NCBI GenBank assembly: GCA_963845755.1
Contig: CAWJTV010000028.1
Span: forward strand, 288,001 to 352,000
Length of the DNA: 64,000 bases
Direction of reading: 5' to 3'
DNA from: an uncultured Planctomycetota bacterium
GTDB taxonomy: Bacteria; Planctomycetota; Planctomycetia; Isosphaerales; Isosphaeraceae
Shown: positions 4,320-37,650 of the stretch, one piece after another
Layout of the letters: every line of letters starts with the position of its first letter
Numbering within the stretch: the stretch's first letter is position 1
Program-made: the position numbers and the translations under genes
Notes under the pieces: model-generated
Seen by the model: only the letters and a program-made list of their open reading frames with translations
Databases searched by the model: none
What the model was told of the DNA's origin: nothing

Positions 4320-6233
4320 ATGTGGGACCGGATTCGGATAGGTCGCTTCCAGCCGAGACAACCCGGTAACGGGATGGGTTCTCGCGCGGGGCGCCGATCG
4401 TCCCGCCAGCCGCTCTTGGAAGTTCTGGAGTGCCGACAGTTGTTGACCGGGACGGGGCCCTCTCTGGCATCCATCTCGAACCAGACCGTCCCGTCCCAGC
4501 AGGGACTGACCCTCCCGCTCGATGGGACCGGCACCACCGATCCCCAGACCTTCACGGTGACGTCCAGCAACCCCGATATTGGGGCCGCGATCGCGGATGG
4601 CCAGTTCTGGACGCTGAACGTCACCTACACCGACCCGACGAACTCCGCCAACGACTTCAGCGGTCCGCTCACGTTCCAGCTTCTGGGCGCCCCCTCCCCT
4701 GCGAGTCCAGGCCCGGGGAACCTGACGCCGAACACCGCCGGAATGATCGAACAGTTCACCAACGACGGATATTTTAATAATACCGGCAAGTTTATCACCC
4801 GGATCATCAACGGGTTCCCCGACTCGGCGAGTTTCGTGATTCAGGGTGGGGCGCCCAATGCCAACGGCACGGGCAGTAGCGGGCAGCCGAATACCCCGTT
4901 CGCGAACGAGAACGTCCAGCAGTTGGCCTTCACCGGCACGGACCAGTTGGCGATGGCCAACGCGGGCGGAACGGATAGCAACGACACCCAGTGGTTCATC
5001 ACGACCGGGACCCCCAATAGCGAGCTCGGGTACGGCTACACCATCTTCGGCCAGCTCGTGCCGAATCCTACGTCCGAAACGTCGGCGCAGGCGACCCTCA
5101 GCAGCCTCACCAAGATTCCGGTCACGACCAACTCGGGTGGTGAGGACTCACTTCCGAAATTCCCACCGACGTACTCCACGTCTCTGTCCTCGACCAATCC
5201 CAGCGGTGTCCTGATCCTCGACACCACCCAGGCCACAGCCGGCGAGACGTCCACGATCACCGTGACGGCGACGGATTCGATCACTCACACCTCCACGAGC
5301 CAGTCGTTCCAGGTCAACGTGAGTGCCTACGCGGGGTCCACCACCCTGACGACCCTCGCCTCCCTGAACTTCAGGCCCTTCGCCAATGCAACCACGGCGA
5401 CAACGTCCGTCAACTCGGCGACGACCGTCACGCTGAACGGGCAGGGCACCTTCCCGGTCTCCGGCCAGAATCAAGCCCTGAGTTATGCGCTCGTGTCCCA
5501 ACCCGCCCATGGCACGGTTACCAACTTCAACCCGACGACCGGGACCTTGACCTACACCCCCGCGCCGGGCTTCAAGGGTTCGGATACATTCCAGTACAAT
5601 GTCACTTCGAGCGGACCGAACACGTCCGAACCGTCCGCAACCAGCAATGCGGGCACGGTCACGATCGCGGTCACCTCGACACAGCCCGTGGACACGGGTG
5701 CGGTCCGCGTGGTCGGCAACACCTTGATCATCACTCCCTTGCCGCGCCCCCTGGACCACGGGACCAACTATATCGATGTGATCCAGGTCCCCAGCACGTC
5801 GACCTCCAGCACGCCGGTCCTCCAGGTCTACGTGAACAATCAGCTCGACACGACCCAACCGGCGGTGGACACCATCGACAGCATCATCGCCTTCGGTTCC
5901 AAGGCCAACGATGTCATCACCATCGACCCCACGGTGACGATCCCGTCGGTGATCGATGGCGGTCACGGGGGTGTCAACCGACTCAAGGCCGGCTCGGTCG
6001 AGACCCGCGAGCACGGCTGGTTCGGGCACACGACCTTGATCGGGGGATCGGGTCCCAACCAGCTCATCGGCCGCGCCGGCCAGGTGAAGTTCCGACCAAC
6101 GCGTTCGACGGACCTCATCTACACGGGATCGCCGAAACGCCGGACGCACTTGCTCAATCCCGTGCCACCCAGCGGCACGTTTTACATCTACAAGAAAGGC
6201 CGCCTGATTCCCGTGCCGTCGAACAAGTTGTAG
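4320..6233 (+). CDS. Extracellular cyclophilin-type peptidyl-prolyl isomerase with Ig/cadherin-like domain
   Basis: Planctomycete extracellular motif LEVLECRQLL. Cyclophilin motifs TRII..FVIQGG, LAMANAG..SNDTQWFIT and YTIFGQLV. Ig-like segment PAHGTV..GTLTYTPAPGFKGSDTFQY. RBS AGGAGGT. Confidence 0.85.
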   Translation: MWDRIRIGRFQPRQPGNGMGSRAGRRSSRQPLLEVLECRQLLTGTGPSLASISNQTVPSQQGLTLPLDGTGTTDPQTFTVTSSNPDIGAAIADGQFWTLNVTYTDPTNSANDFSGPLTFQLLGAPSPASPGPGNLTPNTAGMIEQFTNDGYFNNTGKFITRIINGFPDSASFVIQGGAPNANGTGSSGQPNTPFANENVQQLAFTGTDQLAMANAGGTDSNDTQWFITTGTPNSELGYGYTIFGQLVPNPTSETSAQATLSSLTKIPVTTNSGGEDSLPKFPPTYSTSLSSTNPSGVLILDTTQATAGETSTITVTATDSITHTSTSQSFQVNVSAYAGSTTLTTLASLNFRPFANATTATTSVNSATTVTLNGQGTFPVSGQNQALSYALVSQPAHGTVTNFNPTTGTLTYTPAPGFKGSDTFQYNVTSSGPNTSEPSATSNAGTVTIAVTSTQPVDTGAVRVVGNTLIITPLPRPLDHGTNYIDVIQVPSTSTSSTPVLQVYVNNQLDTTQPAVDTIDSIIAFGSKANDVITIDPTVTIPSVIDGGHGGVNRLKAGSVETREHGWFGHTTLIGGSGPNQLIGRAGQVKFRPTRSTDLIYTGSPKRRTHLLNPVPPSGTFYIYKKGRLIPVPSNKL

Positions 6234-6293
6234 CATCGAGGATCGGCGACGGCGGCCGCATTCCTCATCGTCCGCCAGCGAACGGGCACCTGC

Positions 6294-8844
6294 ATGACAA
6301 CGCTTCCGATCGAGGCATGCCTACCTGCGATCCGAGAGGGACTCGCAACGGGGTCCTTGGTCGTCGTTGCGCCACCCGGCTCGGGGAAGACGACCCGGTT
6401 GCCGGCAGCCCTCCTCGACTCGGGATTGCTGCCCCCGCAGCATCCGAAAGTCCTCGTGCTCCAGCCGCGACGGATCGCGGCGTGCGCGGCCGCCGCGCGG
6501 GTTGCGGAGGAGCGGGGCTGGGCCCTCGGCGGTCCGGTGGGCTACCAGGTCCGTTTCGAGCGGAGGGTCGGCCCGGCGACCCGACTCCAGTTCGTCACGG
6601 AGGGAATCCTGACCCGGCAGCTCCTGGCCGATCCGTTCCTGGAGACCGTCGGCGCGGTGGTCCTCGACGAGTTTCACGAGCGGAGTCTACAGACGGACCT
6701 GGCGCTCGCCTTGCTGCGCGAGGTCCGGCACGACGTGAGGCCCGACCTGATCCTCCTCGTCATGTCGGCGACCCTCGACGCCGAGCCGGTGGCCCGCTTC
6801 CTGGGAAGTTGTCCGATCGTGCATGCCGAAGGGCGGTCGTATCCGGTCTCGATCGAATACTGCCCCAAAGACCGACCTGCCAGCGCCGAGGTGCTGGTTC
6901 CGCTTGTCGAGCAATGGTTGGACGAGCCCGGCGGCAGTGGTCATCTGCTGGTCTTCCTGCCCGGGATGGCGGAGATCCGGCGAGCGGCCGTTCGGTTGGG
7001 ACCGTCGGCGGAACGAGCCGGCGCGCTGGTGCTGCCACTGCACGGCTCTCTCACGTCCGACGAACAGGATCGCGCCTTACGGCCGGGTCCGCAGCGTAAG
7101 ATCATCCTGAGCACTAATGTTGCGGAGACCTCGCTCACGATCGACGGCGTGGATACGGTCATCGACAGCGGCCTGGTCCGATCCGTGCGATTCGATGCCG
7201 GCCGGGGAATCGACCGATGGCACCTGGGCCGGATCAGCCGCGCCTCGGCCGATCAACGCGCGGGACGCGCAGGACGTACGGGCCCTGGCCGTTGCATCCG
7301 CCTCTGGTCGGAGCGCGAGGAACGGGGATTGTCCGCCTTCGAGGAGCCGGAGGTCCACCGGGTCGATCTCAGCGGGACCGTGCTGGCCTTGCATTCCTGG
7401 GGCATCAACGATCCGATGAGGTTCGGTTGGTTCGACTCCCCATCGGCCGATCGGCTCGCCGCAGCCGAACGTCTCTTGGACCTGCTGGGGGCCGTCGAAG
7501 GTGATCCCGCACGGATCACCGAGTTGGGTCGCCGGATGCTCGACCTCCCGGTCCATCCCCGGCTGGCGCGGCTGATCCTGGAGACCGCCGACCGCGGCCG
7601 GCTGCGCGAGGGGGCCGCGGTCGCCGCGTTGCTCTCGGAGAAGGAAATCCTGATGCGCGAGTCCGGTTCCGCCGAGCGAGGAGCGAGAATCCGAGAGGTC
7701 GCGAGCGCTCCGTCCGACGTCCTCGTGCGGCTCGACGCGCTGGTCGAGGCGGGCTCGGCCCGTTTTTCCCCGTCCTTGCGGTCCCGGGGCATCGATCCGG
7801 CCGCCGCACGTCAGGTGGCCAGGCTCCGCGATGAGTTGGTCCGTCTGGGCCGGCGGGGCGTTCGTGGCGGTGAGTTCGACCGAGACCCATCAGACTCAAG
7901 AGGACGAGGCGATCCTCAAAGCCCTCTTGCTGGCCTATCCCGATCGCCTGGTCAAGCGGCGCGGTGCTGAGAGGACCGGAGTGATGGTCGGCGGCCGCGG
8001 GGTCCGGCTGGCGCCCGGCTCGGTCGTCCGCGATGCCGAGCTCTACCTGGCGATCGGCGCACGCGAGGACCGACGCGGCGATCAGCTCGCCGTGCACGTC
8101 GACCTGGCGAGCATCGTCCGGCGGGAATGGCTCGAGGAGCTTCACCCTCATCGCTTGAGGCGCGAGCGAGTGAGCCGCTACGACACCACGCGGAATCGAG
8201 TCATCAGCTCAACCCAGCTCTGGTTCCTGGACCTCTTGATCCGCGAGGATCTCCTCCCGGACGTGGACGACGATGAGGCCAGCAAGCTCCTGGCCGAGGC
8301 CCTGAGACCGGACTTTGCGCGCTTCTTCCGCGAGAACTCTCGGATCGCGGCCTGGCTGGCTCGCGTCGAGTTCCTCCGACAAGCCGTGCCCGAATCGAAC
8401 TGGCCGGTCTTCGACGACCTCGCCTTTGGAGACATCCTCGAGCAGATCTGCCGAGGGAAGAGCACGGTCGAGGAAGTGCGACGGGTCGACCTCCTCGCGT
8501 TCTTGCAGGGCCGGCTGGATGCAAAGCAGCTTCGCGAACTCCGCGAGAGCGCCCCGGAGTCCGTCGCGCTGCCGAGTGGACGCCGGGTCACGCTGGCCTA
8601 CGAACAGGGCCGTCCTCCCGTCCTCGCCGCCCGCCTCCAGGACCTCTTCGGCTGGACCGAGACCCCACGCCTGGCGCGGGGGCGAATCCCCGTCCTGCTG
8701 CACATCCTCGGTCCCAACCATCGACCGGTCCAGATCACCAACGATCTCCGCAGTTTCTGGACGACCACCTACCATCAGGTCCGCAAAGACCTTCGCGGCC
8801 GATATCCCAAGCACGCATGGCCTGCTGATCCTTTGAATTCCTAG
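6294..8844 (+). CDS. hrpB: ATP-dependent helicase HrpB (frameshift ~7860)
   Basis: GSGKTT, DEFH, SAT, STNVAETSLTI and QRAGRAGR in ORF 6294..7970. HrpB C-terminus (LLAYPDR, RPVQITNDLRSFW, LRGRYPKHAWP) in ORF 7831..8844. Confidence 0.92.
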
Positions 8845-28285: not shown

Positions 28286-29848
28286 ATGGCACGGATCGCC
28301 TTGATTAATCCGCGGTTCCAGACCTCGTTCTGGGGGCTGGACCACGGGATGCCGATCCTCGGGAAGCGGTCGAACATGCCGGTGCTGGCGCTGCCAGTCC
28401 TGGCCGGGTTGACGCCCGCAGAGCATGACGTCGTTCTGATCGATGAGAACATCGAGGAGATCGACTTCGACGCGTTGGAGTCGTTCGAGATCGTCGGCCT
28501 GACCGGCATGACGGTTCAGCGCGACCGGATGCGTGAGATCCTGGAAGAGCTCCACACCCGGGGTATCTTCACCGTGATCGGTGGTCCGTGGGTCAGTGTG
28601 GTGGAGGATTGGTTCGAGGGGCTGGTCGACGTCACGTTCGTTGGAGAGGCCGAGGAGACCTGGCCACGATTCCTCGACGAGTGGTCGCGAGGCGAGCACC
28701 AGAGCCGTTATGAACAGGCCGAGAAGACGGACATGACCAAGGTCCCGCCGCCGCGTTTTGACCTCGTCAAGTTCCGCGAGTACGCCATGGGCTGCGTCCA
28801 GACCTCGCGCGGCTGTCCGTTCCAGTGCGAGTTCTGCGACATCATCGTCATTTTCGGCCGCAAGCCGCGGATCAAGACGCCCGAGCAGGTCGTCGCCGAG
28901 ATCGATGCTCAGCACCGGCTCGGCTGTCGCGTGATCTTTCTCGTCGATGATAACTTCATCGGGAACAAGAAAGCCGCCAAGGTCATCCTCCGCGCCATCA
29001 TCGACTGGCAGCGCCAGCACGGCTACCCGTTGGCCTTCTTCACCGAGGCGTCGCTCGACCTGGCCGAGGATGACGAGTTGTTGCGTCTGATGGCCGAGGC
29101 CGGCCTGATCGCCGTCTTCATCGGGATCGAGAGCCCGGACGAAGAGGCCCTTCGCGAGACCAAGAAATACCAGAATGTGCGCGGAAGCCTTGTCGACCGG
29201 GTCCGGAAGGTGCAGGAAGCGGGCCTCGAGGTCTACGCGGGGATGATCGTCGGCTTCGACCAGGACGATGTGACCGTCTTCGATCGGCAGTTCGACTTCC
29301 TCAGCCGGTCGCGGATCGTCGGCGCGATGGCCGGCATGCTTTCGGCGATCCCCAAGACACCGCTGTACGACCGGCTCGCCGCCGAAGGCCGGCTCGACAA
29401 CGCCGCGGCGGACGATCCCCGGATCGCCACCAATGTCGTACCTCTGCACATGACCGTCAGCGAGATGCGCGACGGCTGGCTCGACCTGATGGGCCGTCTC
29501 TATGATGCGGAGAGCTACTTTCAGCGGTTCGACGATCTATTCATCACCGGAAGACTTCCCTTAGCGAGTGCGAAGATGGCCTGGTTACTCCGGCATCGCC
29601 CTCTGCGATACCTTGTGCTCCAGGCCTTGACGATCTTCGGAGCACTCGTGATGCTCGCGCGCGTCTGGTCCGATCCGCGGACGAGGCCCGATCGGCCGGT
29701 CTATGCCAGGTACCTCCGCAAGCTCCTCATCTCGGGCCGGCCGCCGCGTTATCTCTTCCAGTTCGCCTGGAAGTGCATCATGCACACCCACTTCGCCATC
29801 ATGACCCGTCAGATGGTGCGCGGCGAGAGCCGGCTGGTCAACTCATGA
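28286..29848 (+). CDS. B12-binding-domain radical SAM protein (DUF4070-type)
   Basis: N-terminal cobalamin-binding-like region (LTGM, VIGGPW), SRGCPFQCEFC, FLVDDNFIGN, FIGIES and GMIVGFD. Confidence 0.9.
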   Translation: MARIALINPRFQTSFWGLDHGMPILGKRSNMPVLALPVLAGLTPAEHDVVLIDENIEEIDFDALESFEIVGLTGMTVQRDRMREILEELHTRGIFTVIGGPWVSVVEDWFEGLVDVTFVGEAEETWPRFLDEWSRGEHQSRYEQAEKTDMTKVPPPRFDLVKFREYAMGCVQTSRGCPFQCEFCDIIVIFGRKPRIKTPEQVVAEIDAQHRLGCRVIFLVDDNFIGNKKAAKVILRAIIDWQRQHGYPLAFFTEASLDLAEDDELLRLMAEAGLIAVFIGIESPDEEALRETKKYQNVRGSLVDRVRKVQEAGLEVYAGMIVGFDQDDVTVFDRQFDFLSRSRIVGAMAGMLSAIPKTPLYDRLAAEGRLDNAAADDPRIATNVVPLHMTVSEMRDGWLDLMGRLYDAESYFQRFDDLFITGRLPLASAKMAWLLRHRPLRYLVLQALTIFGALVMLARVWSDPRTRPDRPVYARYLRKLLISGRPPRYLFQFAWKCIMHTHFAIMTRQMVRGESRLVNS

Positions 29849-30544: not shown

Positions 30545-30655
30545 AAGTCTCCCTTCGTCTTCCAATCCTGTCAGCACGACGGTCCCGCATTCCAATCGAG
30601 CCCGATCGGCCCGTCAAGAGTCTCCCTCGGTTCCTGACGGCGACGGCGACCCGAT

Positions 30656-30901
30656 TCACCAACGAGGCCGGAGGCCCTGGATGGCATCGTCGACGGCCAG
30701 TTCGATCAGCTCGACCGAGGCGGCGGAACCGACGCGTCGCGTGATCTCGGCCACGATCGCATCGGCGGCACCGCCGACCTGCGCCGCGGCATCACGTCCG
30801 CTGGCGTGGTCGAACCGAGCGATCTCGGCGAGGCGAGCCGCTTCGCCGTATGCAATCCGATAGAGCAAGCACGATTCCAGGTCGTGGAGGAGTTCGCTCA
30901 T
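30656..30901 (-). CDS. Small hypothetical protein (81 aa), translationally coupled to the ABC gene
   Basis: ATGA overlap with the transporter stop (30898-30901); Ala-rich helical sequence. Confidence 0.6.
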   Translation of the reverse strand: MSELLHDLESCLLYRIAYGEAARLAEIARFDHASGRDAAAQVGGAADAIVAEITRRVGSAASVELIELAVDDAIQGLRPRW

Positions 30902-32656
30902 TCTCGTGCACCCGATGGAGTTGGAGTCGCAGGAGTGGACGTCGTTTGTTCGACAAGGGCCCCATCGACCGCGCCGCGTCCCCGAATCGGCGTGACTTGC
31001 CAGCGTCCTTCACCCTGGATTTCGAGCTCCGTATCATGATAGGCACCCAGGCTCCGGCGGTCGCCGATGCTCAGGTAGGTGATCGCGGATTCCCCGAGAA
31101 CCTGGTAGAGCATCCCGACCTGATCGGCGCCCAGGTCCGCGCCGATGTGATCGAGGAAAACGAAACGGGGGCTCGTCAGGAGGACGCGAGCGAAGACCAG
31201 CAGCCGCTGCTCGACGGGTGAGAGCGCGCTGGGACTGTGGACGTCAGCGTCGAGTCCGCCGACGCGTTCGACCATCGAATGCAGCCCGACCTTCTCGAGC
31301 GCCGCGAGGATCTCCCCATCGCGAAGGGCACGCTCGGAAGAGCTGGTGATCAACTGGGATCGTAGCGTGCAGCCGCACGGTCAACGGCTGCCTGGGCACG
31401 AACGTGATCTCTCCGGGACCGGGCCGGACAATGCGGCCTTCTCCGTCCTCCCAGATGCCGACGGTCGCCAGGAATAGGGCCATCTCGGCGGTCACGTCCG
31501 ATCCGGTGATCAGCAGGTTCTTGCCCGAGGGGATTTCCAGCGAGAGGTTCTGGATCAGCGGGCGGCGGTCCCGCCGCGTCCAGAGCGTGAGCCCGTCGTA
31601 AGCCACCCGGTCGGGCGCCTCGGCGACTCGGATGCCCGAGACGGCCGGTGACTGCGCCTCATCGATGGCGTCGACGATCGTGTCCAGACGCCTGGTCACG
31701 GCGGCGAACGAAGAAAGCGTTTCGAACTGCGTCACGATCAGCGAGAACGCACCCAGAAACGCCGAGAACGCCATCGCGGACTGCGTGACGACGCCGAACT
31801 CCACCTGGCCCCGGATGTACATCGGCGCCACGATCAGGAGTGGGATGAGTTGGGTCAGGTAGTTGTACCCGTTGACGAAGAAATTGAGATTCCGTGTGAC
31901 TCGGACGATGGCCTCGTTATTGGCCACCACATCGTCCAGGCGTGAGCGGAGACAGCCGCCGACCGTCCGCTCGGCGCGCATCGTCGTGATCGTCTCGGCC
32001 GTCTCCCGCGTCTGGATGAGGTGATAGCGAAGGTCGGCCTCCTTCTGAAGCTGGAGGTTGTCCAACCTGACGAGCGGGCGACCGAGCAGGATCGTCAGCG
32101 TCGAACCGACCGCGGCGTACAGCCCGGCGACCACCACCAACCACGGAGTAATGGACCAGAGGACGCCCAGGAATGCCAGTGACGTGACCAGCGCGTTGAG
32201 CGACAGGAGGAAGAACGAGAGGGTCGTTTGGGCGTACGACTTGACGTCCTCGGTGATCCGCTCGTCGGGGTTGTCGACCTCGTCCCGGGCCTTGAGTCGG
32301 TAGAACGCGTCATCGGACATGTAGCGGTCGATCAGTCGGCGCGTCATCCATCCGCGCCACAGGAGGCGGAGCCGCTCTTCGGAGAAGCGGTAGAACGCGG
32401 ACATGACCGTCGATACGGCGAAGACGCCCGCATAGACGAAGCCATAGCGGAGGAACTGGTTCCACCGGCGATCGGAGATGGCCGTCATGAAGTCGCGGCC
32501 AACGTAGCTGTTGACGACGTTCAGGCCGCTGAGCGACAGGAGCAAGGCCAGAAGGAGGGTAAACCAGCCGATGGCCGGCCGTCGGGCTTCAGATGAGACG
32601 AAGAGCCGGAGGACATTCAGAAAACGTGTCCATGCCCGCGGTTGATGGTTGATCAT
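30898..32656 (-). CDS. YddA/BacA-type (ABC_membrane_2) half-transporter with degenerate NBD (frameshift ~31370)
   Basis: The TMD has DNPDERITEDV, EADLRYHL, APMYIRG and EFGVVTQSAMAF. The NBD fold is recognisable but its catalytic motifs are substituted. Confidence 0.85.
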
Positions 32657-32781
32657 CGAGGCCACTCGTCTGTTGACGATGCAATGGGTTGGCCTCGATG
32701 AACCGACCCCAGGCCGTTGCCTCGGCCTCGCCGGTCCCGATGTCACTCTCCCGGCGCGCGCCGGAGCCAGACCCCCCTCCT

Positions 32782-34176
32782 TTAATTCTTGCCGCTCGGC
32801 CACGAGTTTTCCACGCCATCCGGTCGGCCTTCACCTTGCGATGAACGTTTCCCGCGCTCGGCGGCTCTCCGGGCTGCGGCTGGGGACGGCTTCCGCAACT
32901 TCGGCGCGGCGGTGAGCGAGTGCAGGAAGGCGAGCAACTCCTGGCGGTCGCCGTCGTCGAGCTTCCCGTAGCGGGTCGCGATCGTGGCGGCCTCGCCGCC
33001 GTGGAGCCGGATGGCCTCGTCGAGCGTGCTCGCCCGGCCGTCGTGGAGATAAGGGGCCGAATTCGCGACGCCCCACAAGGGCGGCGTGCGCCATTCGGTC
33101 TTCGCCGCCGTTCCCGCCGACTGCGCGCTCGCCCTTGCCGAGGCGATGTCACCCGGGCTTTCGGTTGTGGTCGAACTGCCGTAGTAGGTGGCGGCATCGC
33201 CCAGAGATTGGCCCATGTCGTGGAGCAGCAGGTCGCTGTAGATTCCGTTCACTTCCCCCAAACGGGGTGTATGACACGTCGTGCATCCGATCGTCTCGAA
33301 CGCCGCATAACCCGACGGCTCGGAGATCTCGTACGGTGCGGTACGGAGCACAGGTGGGGACAGTGCACGCACATAGTGAATCAGTCGATCGCACTGTTCG
33401 GCATCCATGTCGAGTTTCGGCTCGGAGCGGCTGTCCGACTCGGCGGTCGTGATGGTCGCCTGGTGGTGGCCGGGAACTTCCAGACCCAGCTCGTTGGAGC
33501 ATGCGGCCAGAACGAAGTCCCGAAGGGTCTCCGTCTGACCCTTCCACCCGAACCGTCCGATCCGGCCGCTTGGCAGCCGGCTCACCCGGCCCTTGATCTC
33601 GGGGAATCGGCGGAACTTCCGCTCCCCGGCTTCGATCAGCACCCGATCGGGAATGGCGTCGATGAGCCCCGCGCCGAAGATCGCCGGCGTGTTCCTCTCC
33701 GACGTCTTCAGATCGAGAATCTCCCCGCGACGATCCACCTGCGAGTAGGACGCGACGTCGCGGAGCAACGCCTGGAATGTCCTGGACGTGGCATGCCGGT
33801 GGAGGACGATACTGGCACTTGTCCGGAATAACTCATGAAGGTCCCCCAGGTCGCCCTGGAACGTTTCACCACCCCGCTTCGCGTTGCCTGGGGTTGCGAC
33901 GGCGGTGACCATGCGGACGTTGAGATCGTTCCCGCCCGCGCCGCCCACGCCGCCGAGGTGATGGCATGCCACACACGACTGCTCGTTATAGAGCGGCCCG
34001 AGCCCGTCGCCACCGATCGGACTGGGCTCTCCGGGCGTCCAGGTTTTCATGAAGAGCTGGCGACCTTCGTAGAATTCCCGGGAGACCGTTGTCCTTGACT
34101 TCTGACTGCGGTCGCCGGCGACGGCCACCGAGCAGGCCACGACCAGGAGGCATCCAGCCCGGAGCCAGGTCTTCAT
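32782..34176 (-). CDS. Di-heme oxidoreductase (DHOR)-family c-type cytochrome, paralogue 1
   Basis: Signal peptide, DGLGPLYNEQSCVACH, GRFGWKG, CTTCH, YSDLLLHDMG, WRTPPLWG and YLHDGRA. Confidence 0.88.
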   Translation of the reverse strand: MKTWLRAGCLLVVACSVAVAGDRSQKSRTTVSREFYEGRQLFMKTWTPGEPSPIGGDGLGPLYNEQSCVACHHLGGVGGAGGNDLNVRMVTAVATPGNAKRGGETFQGDLGDLHELFRTSASIVLHRHATSRTFQALLRDVASYSQVDRRGEILDLKTSERNTPAIFGAGLIDAIPDRVLIEAGERKFRRFPEIKGRVSRLPSGRIGRFGWKGQTETLRDFVLAACSNELGLEVPGHHQATITTAESDSRSEPKLDMDAEQCDRLIHYVRALSPPVLRTAPYEISEPSGYAAFETIGCTTCHTPRLGEVNGIYSDLLLHDMGQSLGDAATYYGSSTTTESPGDIASARASAQSAGTAAKTEWRTPPLWGVANSAPYLHDGRASTLDEAIRLHGGEAATIATRYGKLDDGDRQELLAFLHSLTAAPKLRKPSPAAARRAAERGKRSSQGEGRPDGVENSWPSGKN

Positions 34177-34635
34177 CCCGATTCTCGACGTCTCTTCCGA
34201 GGTTGTGCTGTGACACATTGTTGTCAATCTCCGACGAATGATAGGTGAGCAGGGTTCACGGATGACCTTTTTCCCTCGGTGCGCAGCGGGCCCGGACCCT
34301 CGGAGAAGGGCCGATGTTCGTAGTCGATAACCTGATGAACGGTCCGCCCGCGACCTCAGAAGGACCGATCAATCGGAATCTTCGCGGCGCGCGTAATCGT
34401 TCACCGGTCGATTGGCGAGGCCGAACCTGGACGAGACGGAGGGCGTCCCGACGCCTCGCGTTTCAGGAAAAGGGAGCTTTGAAGTGAGAGACGATCCGAT
34501 CGCCCGGATTATTCGCGACCCTGCTGCACGGCGCGCGAGGCGGCGTCCTCACCTCGTCCGGCCGCGGACCTGGTATCGAGGCTCGTCGACTCGCGTCTCC
34601 GCAAAGAGCTCGCCGGATCGTGGTGATGTCGGCCC

Positions 34636-36193: not shown

Positions 36194-37650
36194 ATGCGCC
36201 CTGAGATTCGGATACTCGCGCTGGGAGCGGCGGGCGGGCTGTTCCTGATACTCGTGTGCTCCGCGATGCCAGTCGGGCGAGTGGCGCGGGCCGCCGATGC
36301 GGGCGGGGCGCCTCAGGCGAAACTCGCCAAGGCGATCACACAGGGCCGCGAACTCTTCAATCGGGAGTGGACGCCCAACGATCGTCGGAGCCATGGGGGA
36401 GACGGGCTGGGACCTGTTTACAATGAGCGATCGTGCGTCGGGTGCCACCACCAAGGACCGTCGAAGGGCGGAGGTGGGTCGGCCGGCACGAACATCGAGA
36501 TCATCTCGGCCACACCCGCCGGCAGCAACAACAACTTCCAGTCCTCGCCCGGGTTCTATTACGCCTTCTCGTTCAACTACGGCCCCGACGGCTTCGAATA
36601 CCGCTTCGGGGACCCGGCGCAGCGCGGGGGCGGGCACCGGCTCGCCGACCCGCCGCTGTTAACGCCAACGCGGCTAACGTCGGCACCTTGGTGCGGATTC
36701 ATCCGGGCTTTCGCGATGCGCTCGGCGTGGTCCTGCATCGGTACGGTAACGATGCCGATTACCGTGTCTGGCGCGAGTGGGTGCTGGGCCAGCACGGCAC
36801 GATCGCCATGCGATCGTCGCAGCGGAATCCCACCCCGCTGTTCGGCGTCGGCCTGATCGACGCCATCCCGGACGCCGCCATCGAGGCGGCTGCGCGACGG
36901 AAACACCCCGGCTCGCCGCAGGTGAATGGACGGATCGGACGACTGGCTGACGGACGGATCGGACGGTTCGGCTGGAAGGCTCAGACGGCGACGTTGCGCG
37001 AATTCGTCCTCTCGGCCGCTGCGGTCGAAATGGGACTGGAGGTCCCCGGGCATGCGCAAGCCGGCGATCCGCGGATCCCACCGCTCAAGCCGCCGGGACT
37101 GGACCTCGACCGCGACGAGTGCGATGCCCTGACCGCGTTCGTGGGATCGCTACCGCCTCCGAAGGTCGAGCGTGCTGCCAATGCCCGGGAAACCAAAACG
37201 CTCAAAGCAGGCAAGATCCTGTTCAAATCGATCGGCTGCACGGATTGCCACGTCGAGAAACTCGGTGGTGTCGATGGGATTTACAGCGACCTGCTGCTTC
37301 ACGCCATGGCTCCCGAGATGGCCGATACGCCCTCCTACGCTGCGTTCCTCTCCGGAGCCGACGCGCCGGCCGCGAATGCCAACCCCAATCCGGCCGGCGC
37401 ACCATTGGCCCGACGTACCGGAGTGGTCACCGAAGAGGAATGGCGGACGCCGCCCCTGTGGGGCCTGCACGACTCGGCCCCGTATCTCCACGACGGCCGC
37501 GCCGGCACGGTGGACGAAGCCATCCGTCTGCACGGCGGCGAGGCGACCGCCTCCGCCCGACGCTATCGGCAATTGACCGCGCGCGACCAGGCGGAGCTCC
37601 AGGCGTTCTTGCTCTCGCTCGTCGCACCGGATGATCTTGGCCCCAAGTGA
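36194..37650 (+). CDS. DHOR-family di-heme cytochrome c, paralogue 2 (frameshift ~36650)
   Basis: Signal peptide, DGLGPVYNERSCVGCH, GRFGWKA, CTDCH, YSDLLLH, WRTPPLWG and YLHDGRA. Confidence 0.88.

Follow-up and report, generated by a model that had tools for sequence, protein, structure and literature searches.

Can a half-transporter of the ATP-binding cassette (ABC) type that has exchanged the residues of its ATP site still be a working gene, and what would such a protein do? The question is raised by a minus-strand gene at 30898..32656 of a 64,000-nucleotide stretch of DNA, hereafter the window, which spans positions 288,001 to 352,000 of contig CAWJTV010000028.1 (assembly GCA_963845755.1) of an uncultured soil planctomycete of the family Isosphaeraceae. 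ABC transporters are defined by ATP-driven alternating access, and SbmA/BacA demonstrates that a proton gradient can power the same membrane fold. Sequence comparison places the gene in a branch of the ABCD/YddA/Rv1819c lineage that appears to be conserved, under selection and ATPase-dead, in which derivatives without a nucleotide-binding domain (NBD) are nested and for which a mechanism can be inferred.

Read through a single frame break, the gene encodes 585 amino acids (aa). As assembled, it is split into two minus-strand open reading frames (ORFs), 31244..32803 and 30898..31353, which overlap by ~110 bases in different frames. The start is the ATG at 32656 (MINHQ...), matching the start methionine of the homologues, which are 560-590 aa long; the intact homologues P0002 (86% identity) and P0003 (80%) are 584-586 aa in length with an equivalent start. 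The gene is laid out as follows:

31652..32656 (-): transmembrane domain (TMD), residues 1 to about 335, comprising an elbow helix and six long transmembrane helices (PF06472; helices of the AlphaFold2 model of P0003)
inside 31652..32656 (-): motif DNPDERITEDV of the family, within the TMD
30988..31630 (-): non-catalytic NBD homologue, residues about 343-556 (aligned to the NBDs of Rv1819c and ABCD4)
31475..31510 (-): Walker A remnant LLITGSDVTAEMALF / ITGSDVTAEMAL (aligned to 6tqe and ABCD4)
31385..31402 (-): Q-loop region FVPRQP (canonical FLPQ[RK]P)
31373..31374 (-): frame break, one extra G in 'acc gtg cgG ctg cac' (located from short-read contigs and homologues)
31207..31224 (-): signature LSPVEQ (family norm LSPGEQ)
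31147..31164 (-): Walker B remnant FVFLDH (Asp kept, catalytic Glu to His)
31057..31071 (-): H-loop remnant SIGDR (canonical SVGHR, His to Asp)
30901..30987 (-): C-terminal tail, poorly conserved and predicted to be disordered (ratio of nonsynonymous to synonymous substitution rates, dN/dS, about 1; predicted local distance difference test score, pLDDT, <55 after residue 560 in P0003)
30898..30900 (-): stop codon of the transporter gene

The TMD matches the Pfam family ABC_membrane_2 (PF06472; E=7e-38; 131 bits against a cut-off of 24.4; 123 bits for P0003) and, more weakly, SbmA_BacA (PF05992; E=2.4e-11), and the motif NPD[EQ]R in the coupling region is kept in the clade. The C-terminal piece reaches only E=0.038 and 15 bits against ABC_tran (PF00005), under the gathering cut-off of 25, and the intact P0003 gives no PF00005 match at E up to 0.01. 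By these domain matches the gene product is classed as a YddA/Rv1819c/ABCD-type half-transporter, in keeping with the membrane domain that an earlier note, made from the letters of this stretch, had described as YddA/Rv1819c-like.

That note held every ATPase motif to be substituted, and all the strings it quoted (LLITGSDVTAEMALF, FVPRQP, LSPVEQ, FVFLDH and SIGDR) are present. Motif norms were read from phmmer alignments of P0002 against the PDB sequences of Rv1819c (6tqe) and ABCD4. The canonical Walker A motif is ITGxxGxGK[ST]xLL, while in the window its lysine is replaced by glutamate and both later glycines are gone (canonical ITGRSGAGKTTLL and ITGNTGTGKTSLL versus ITGPDVTAETALF in the clade); the window has GSDVTAEM at this site, and GPDxxAE[TS] stands in the related loci L002, L003, L004 and L006 and in P0002 and P0003. 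The Q-loop reads FVPRQPL against the canonical FLPQKPF, such that the glutamine is displaced by one position, and there is no glutamine in L002 and L004. In place of the canonical Walker B LDE, clade members carry LER, LDH, LDR or VDR, with arginine in most relatives, and the H-loop of the relatives reads [ST][IV]GD. As judged from these alignments, Walker A, Walker B, the H-loop and the Q-loop are truly non-canonical. For the signature the note's claim was too strong. The motif reads LSPGEQQR in Rv1819c and LSPGEMQR in ABCD4: LSPVEQ differs by a single G-to-V change, LSPGE is kept in the close relatives P0005, P0010 and P0011, and the serine and glutamate are retained while the second glycine is variable. 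On this comparison the signature is probably not a lost motif.

One explanation of such changes would be that the gene is a decaying pseudogene, its frameshift real and its NBD substitutions the product of drift. In its favour, the window carries the frameshift, P0004, a 99% identical protein on another contig, has a different break upstream, and the C-terminal tail evolves near neutrality. However, P0004 translates across the window's break site as if the extra base were absent, and homologues read PLTVRCTLRSQL across that site, which leaves one surplus base in the window. Contigs from four soil-metagenome runs of one study were furthermore compared over 30600-32900, and the base at 31373 is missing from 3/3 short-read contigs spanning it (runs X1, X3 and X4; 0-2 other differences each); the study may be the window's own source, and the comparison thus represents short reads of the same population rather than an independent organism. 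Because the base is absent from all three contigs, the frameshift, which the earlier note had taken as real, was probably introduced by the assembly, most likely as an indel error of the consensus, and the gene is probably intact.

The distribution of breaks among relatives is consistent with this. From 593 confirmed relatives, 80 loci were taken, and tblastn matched eight of them in several pieces. Seven of the eight are records of metagenome-assembled genomes (MAGs) or chromosomes named 'contig_N' that are split by frame changes, and the eighth (L018) consists of two tandem genes; no such split was found among the loci titled k141, k127, k107 or NODE. Single or compensated frame breaks can be observed in many large-contig MAG records of the clade (the C-terminal tail of P0002/L082, P0026, L005, L012, L013, L023, L025, L038 and L042), for which indel errors are the likely cause, and protein catalogues derived from such records hold garbled or shortened versions of 353-473 aa.

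Numerous intact orthologues of 560-590 aa carry the same substitutions as the window, and, as the earlier note had argued, the frameshift does not explain them. Seventy-two single-piece loci were tabulated, leaving out L005, L012, L013, L018, L023, L025, L038 and L042. A canonical NBD (GxSGxGKSSLL, LPQRPY, LSLGEQQR, LDEATSALD, SVGHR) is found in 48/72 loci, which derive from cyanobacteria, Verrucomicrobiota, Pseudomonadota and one Pirellulaceae MAG. Sixteen loci have a non-canonical NBD, and all sixteen are planctomycete MAGs. The remaining eight comprise four complete ORFs that lack an NBD (342-368 aa) and four that are cut by contig ends. On their motifs, the sixteen non-canonical loci constitute a graded series of loss. 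L014 and L019 keep the Walker B LDE pair, lack the H-loop histidine and have arginine for the Walker A lysine (GxGR); L015, L017, L021, L036 and L054 keep GK[ST] and have lost both the catalytic glutamate and the H-loop histidine; L069, counted as partly degenerate, keeps GK[ST] and the catalytic glutamate, but its Walker B aspartate is replaced by asparagine and it lacks the H-loop histidine; in L008 to L011 Walker A is eroded to GPDSGAKT, GPNATAKA, GPNDAAKN and GPNGPAAS; and L002, L003, L004 and L006, with GPDxxAE[TS], complete the series.

A profile search of 1.84 billion representatives clustered at 50% identity returned 2305 proteins at E<=1e-30. Among the best 150 of these, 82 have all three sites in canonical form, 45 retain an NBD with at least one catalytic motif lost, 22 of which have lost all three, and 23 have no or a partial NBD, including 12 of <=400 aa, some of which may be fragments. 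The H-loop flag accepted any nearby histidine and P0094, P0126, P0136 and P0139 passed it falsely, so the count of 45 is if anything low. With the exception of P0141 (rank 23), the top 33 ranks of the search are all non-canonical or truncated. By these counts the degenerate NBD is a family trait and not an isolated case of decay; the close homologues, which the earlier note proposed to check for canonical motifs, are themselves non-canonical.

Selection on the coding sequences was estimated as Nei-Gojobori (NG86) dN/dS with a codon bootstrap of 500 replicates. For the degenerate NBD, dN/dS is 0.24-0.40 in seven pairs, with upper 95% bounds no higher than 0.59 and 0/500 bootstraps at or above 1, compared to 0.03-0.26 for the canonical NBD (9/10 pairs; one saturated). 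The TMD of the same seven pairs gives 0.14-0.43, and 0.14-0.28 in the five pairs that have lost Walker A. In these five pairs dN(NBD)/dN(TMD) is 1.7-2.6, as against 0.5-1.8 in canonical pairs, and mean column conservation in the clade is higher in the TMD (0.73) than in the NBD (0.60), the reverse of the canonical members (TMD 0.63; NBD 0.68). The NBD is thus relaxed about two-fold yet clearly maintained, and the subfamily with an inactive but retained NBD that the earlier note had envisaged is borne out, including by the dN/dS check it called for. The pseudogene reading is rejected, since the frameshift is absent in the short reads and the NBD is under purifying selection, and we consider it very improbable.

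The fold is likewise predicted to be retained. An AlphaFold2 model of P0003 (112-row alignment) has a mean pLDDT of 90.6 and a pTM of 0.83, with NBD pLDDT of about 85-98, and its best Foldseek match is Rv1819c (6tqe_A; TM-score 0.78), with ABCD1, ABCD3 and ABCD4 at 0.70-0.80. The model suggests a type IV fold with a C-terminal RecA-like NBD. A two-copy complex prediction of the NBD (P0003 residues 338-560), run without controls, scored 0.20 and 0.14, both short of the mark of 0.42 at which it would give an answer.

A tree was calculated from the TMD columns only, for 49 rows that include 20 of the 48 canonical loci, by a quick IQ-TREE search with ExsE as outgroup. Twenty-five planctomycete rows, none of them canonical, group together (SH-aLRT 86). 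Within them, the rows that have lost Walker A form a clade of 15 (support 99), in which the core of seven rows with the lysine-to-glutamate exchange is nested (99). The NBD-less L016, L022, L024 and L020 group with L015 (99 and 100), the NBD of which is present but partly dead. In the flanks retrieved around the NBD-less genes (up to 6 kb per side), tblastn with the L015 NBD as query detected no remnant of the domain at E up to 10. The dN/dS of the NBD-less genes is 0.13-0.15, while L020 versus L016 gives 0.46. Within this clade, the membrane domain is kept by selection without any NBD.

Two further observations concern the NBD-less forms. In L018, a Polyangiaceae MAG, two NBD-less homologues of 405 and 347 aa are encoded in tandem (5842..7059 and 7354..8397, +); they are 50-53% identical to the query TMD, have a dN/dS of 0.19 between them and could form a heterodimeric NBD-less transporter outside Planctomycetota. 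In addition, the TMD motif NPDQR reads NPDER in the window (about 32247..32273, DNPDERITE), which places an extra acidic residue three positions before the equivalent of SbmA-E193. NPDER also occurs in the NBD-less L016, L022 and L024 and in a branch of the lysine-to-glutamate core with L008 and L010, while the glutamine is kept (NPDQR) in the nearest relatives L015, L020, L009 and L011, and it may represent a convergent change near the cytoplasmic gate.

Since the NBD persists under selection, it may be asked whether the protein still works with nucleotides in a remodelled pocket, or with another ABC half-transporter or a free NBD that would supply one working site by way of the near-intact signature. 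Several features are compatible with this: LSP[GVA]E stays near the family norm and its glutamate does not vary among 14 clade members, the NBD fold and the NPD[EQ]R coupling motif are kept, the dN/dS of the NBD is below 1, and earlier-branching members of the clade keep the Walker A GK[ST]. The exchange of lysine for glutamate, together with the loss of the P-loop glycines, the catalytic glutamate and the H-loop histidine, however, removes every canonical ATP contact, and relatives without any NBD persist under selection. A search for partners also yielded none. The window's genome (14.3 Mb; 87.9% complete) contains a single PF06472 gene, as does each of the four other carrier genomes, where the two matches in G003 belong to a single gene and G015 has a completeness of 99%; in the window the transporter has no ABC gene next to it, and none is conserved alongside it in relatives. 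The heterodimer with an intact paralogue that the earlier note had offered is therefore rejected, there being no such same-family gene in 5/5 carrier genomes, a screen confined to PF06472 genes. In heterodimeric exporters, the degenerate subunits known so far retain the Walker A lysine. Taken together, we judge continued work with nucleotides or with a partner to be unlikely.

The comparison with those exporters is instructive in other respects. TM287/288, TmrAB and BmrCD are heterodimeric type IV exporters with the same overall fold (TM-scores 0.67-0.75), and they show non-catalytic substitutions at the Walker B glutamate and the H-loop, as does the clade. They are, however, encoded by two adjacent genes and retain one catalytic site, whereas the window has a single, partnerless gene in which Walker A is destroyed. 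Both sites would be dead in a homodimer of the window protein, unlike in the heterodimeric exporters.

A third possibility is that the protein is no longer a transporter, the ABC fold now serving as a channel, receptor or regulator, as in CFTR or SUR, with the dead NBD in a signalling role. Selection on an NBD without catalytic residues would fit such a role, as would the TMD changes specific to the clade (among them, in P0003 numbering, R93 to E and W253 to V) and a sigma-54-dependent response regulator encoded upstream in the Gemmataceae subclade. Against this, the TMD is the most conserved part of the protein and retains the hallmark motifs of the family, while the NBD-less forms, which would have lost any NBD-based signalling, are nonetheless conserved. 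Furthermore, no neighbour is conserved as a partner across the clade (stop-to-stop ORFs of >=80 aa, clustered from 33 sources, i.e. 32 loci and the window). We regard such a re-use as quite unlikely.

Among characterised proteins, the mycobacterial BacA Rv1819c (PDB 6tqe/6tqf) is the best PDB sequence match (phmmer E=3.5e-45 for P0002), followed by human ABCD4, ABCD1 and ABCD3. With the Rv1819c/ABCD4/YddA/BclA group the window protein shares the PF06472 TMD, the NPDxR..ED motif, an LSPGE-type signature and the order of a half-transporter with the TMD preceding the NBD. The Rv1819c/ABCD4 group has canonical Walker A, Walker B and H-loop motifs and is ATP-driven (PMC12003926, PMC13316013), whereas lysine, glutamate and histidine are replaced in the window. 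Against TIGR00954 ('3a01203'), the NCBIfam model of the ABCD/YddA/BclA group, the score is 143.6, compared to a cut-off of 918.9.

SbmA/BacA, a SLiPT (PDB 7p34), has a related TMD (E=9e-5 for P0002) and resembles the clade in that the clade's transporter is presumed to be ATP-independent and has NBD-less relatives. SbmA lacks an NBD, however, whereas the window gene encodes a homologue of one that is predicted to fold. SbmA also lacks coupling helices and possesses TM0 helices (PMC13316013), while the NPDER..ED motif of the intracellular loop is kept in the clade, and overall it is to the canonical YddA-like ABC proteins, far more than to SbmA, that the clade is close. The five-glutamate ladder of SbmA comprises E193, E203, E276, E287 and E378 (PMC13316013). 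The clade has equivalents of E193 and E276 only, which canonical ATP-driven members keep too, and a ladder of the SbmA type is rejected for it, three of the five glutamates being absent. The earlier note's proposal of an intermediate between the ABC and SbmA types accordingly stands in altered form, as a parallel case with complete NBD-less descendants that lies off the SbmA lineage.

Partial degeneration also occurs in ExsE of Sinorhizobium meliloti (pSymB exs cluster), a full-length member of the same superfamily which is only about 27% identical (over residues 8-521) and forms a long separate branch as the outgroup. ExsE reads GDPRAGKT and LGDDEQ and has an H-loop without histidine; the GK of Walker A and the D-E pair of Walker B survive in it, but its Q-loop, signature and H-loop have degenerated. 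A protein encoded on a chromid of Rhizobium sp. CB3060 (43% identical) goes further, with Walker A and Walker B fully eroded (GDDNAAAT and FFEN), and is placed on a long branch outside the planctomycete clade. An 'EQRLLxFAR' form of the signature helix is common to the clade, ExsE and the CB3060 protein. Judged by motif content, dead-NBD forms are not confined to Planctomycetota. In CB3060 (L102; 975..6650, +) the dead-NBD gene is the third in an apparent operon, after genes for a glycan phosphorylase (PF00343) and an acetate kinase (PF00871), and a sugar transporter of the major facilitator superfamily is encoded downstream of it on the chromid.

We therefore favour, as a somewhat better than even proposition, an intact gene whose product belongs to the ABCD/YddA/Rv1819c lineage, has the type IV ABC fold and would act as a homodimeric transporter that has given up ATP hydrolysis but kept a non-catalytic NBD. 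The analysis establishes that the motifs are lost and that these losses are conserved, that the NBD and the NBD-less genes are under purifying selection, that the fold is retained in the model and that the carrier genomes have no intact paralogue of the same family; the homodimeric state, ATP independence, transport direction, substrate and energy source we infer. In type IV ABC proteins, ATP-dependent dimerisation of the NBDs switches the TMD between states (PMC13316013). A normal ATP cycle should not be able to run in the window protein because the P-loop lysine has become glutamate and both the catalytic base and the H-loop histidine are gone, and an ATP-independent carrier is favoured because this cycle is disabled and NBD-less relatives are viable.

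The changes in the planctomycete clade may have occurred in steps. The NBD would first have lost its catalytic glutamate and H-loop histidine, then the glycines and lysine of Walker A (lysine to glutamate in the Isosphaeraceae core), and in some Gemmataceae lineages the whole NBD would finally have been deleted, with the TMD staying the most conserved part throughout. The TMD would alternate access without the ATP cycle, as a facilitator or ion-coupled carrier, presumably for large hydrophilic solutes as in the family. The retained NBD could serve as a folded, non-catalytic cytoplasmic module, either as a structural latch or as a regulatory or ligand-sensing domain, and, more speculatively, the lysine-to-glutamate and glutamate-to-arginine/histidine exchanges might close the old pocket with a salt bridge. 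More tentatively, and at somewhat less than even confidence, the clade can be seen as preserving successive living stages through which a primary ABC transporter became ATP-independent without losing its coupling-loop motifs, and did so independently of the SbmA/BacA lineage.

Several points weigh against this interpretation. Orthologues (E<1e-90) are present in 5/37 genomes of the window's family, its own included, and in 0/24 genomes of the other families of the class, a patchy occurrence that indicates an accessory role. The Walker A GK[ST] retained in L015, L017, L021, L036 and L054 could still bind ATP. Purifying selection means that the NBD still does something, and an unusual role in binding a ligand or nucleotide is conceivable. 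At the positions equivalent to SbmA E203, E287 and E378 the clade has L, R and S/T (MAFFT L-INS-i alignment at low identity), and because these three ladder glutamates are absent nothing points to proton coupling in the manner of SbmA. The NG86 dN/dS values are rough in high-GC genomes and dS is near saturation in some pairs, while the tree comes from a quick search, has no inferred root and includes some open forks.

A large, selected clade with dead NBDs and nested NBD-less genes would supply missing intermediates between ABC transporters and SLiPTs, and might reveal the path from an ATP pump to a transporter that works without ATP. PMC12003926 classifies SbmA/BacA, BclA, Mycobacterium BacA and ExsE, and the terms 'degenerate' and 'Planctomycet' are absent from it. 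According to a proposal in PMC13316013 (2026), YddA-like ABC proteins gave rise to the SLiPTs when they lost the NBD and the coupling helices; no intermediates between the two are named there. In the literature searched, which did not include subscription journals and supplements, no published account of ATPase-dead YddA/BclA-like clades was found. If the interpretation holds, the clade would offer a natural test bed for the 2026 proposal, making it possible to address whether the TMD transports without ATP, what its energy source is and what a non-catalytic NBD contributes. Automatic annotation labels such genes 'ABC transporter ATP-binding protein/permease' or 'vitamin B12/bleomycin/antimicrobial peptide transport system', names that probably give a wrong idea of their energy source.

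The genes surrounding the transporter in the window include the following:

28286..29848 (+): B12-binding radical-SAM gene with DUF4070, convergent with the transporter operon
30656..30901 (-): 81-aa ORF, the ATG of which overlaps the transporter stop (ATGA)
32782..34227 (-): di-haem oxidoreductase gene (PF06537 DHOR), upstream of the transporter on the same strand
36433..37650 (+): second PF06537 DHOR gene of the window

Recurring neighbours are limited to the 81-aa ORF (five close loci), GT1 and DHOR genes (close relatives) and the sigma-54 response regulator (Gemmataceae subclade); a 243-aa ORF of no known family also neighbours the transporter. The 81-aa ORF lies directly downstream of the transporter in L002, L004 and L006 (72-75% identity) and also clusters in L083. 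It has no Pfam or NCBIfam match and may encode a small accessory protein of the Isosphaeraceae core clade. The B12-binding radical-SAM gene is a neighbour in no locus of the planctomycete clade, its one match (32% identity) being at the canonical locus L028, and its link to a cobalamin-transporter-like family is probably coincidental. The sigma-54-dependent response regulator (PF00072, PF00158, HTH_8) is found upstream of the transporter in L016, L022, L024, L015, L042 and L058, loci of the Gemmataceae subclade that includes NBD-less forms. DHOR genes are also located near the transporter in L005, L002 and L025, and a CCP_MauG gene (PF03150; L018 8601..10238, -) stands beside the tandem NBD-less pair; the proximity of di-haem genes could reflect either coincidence or a loose functional link.

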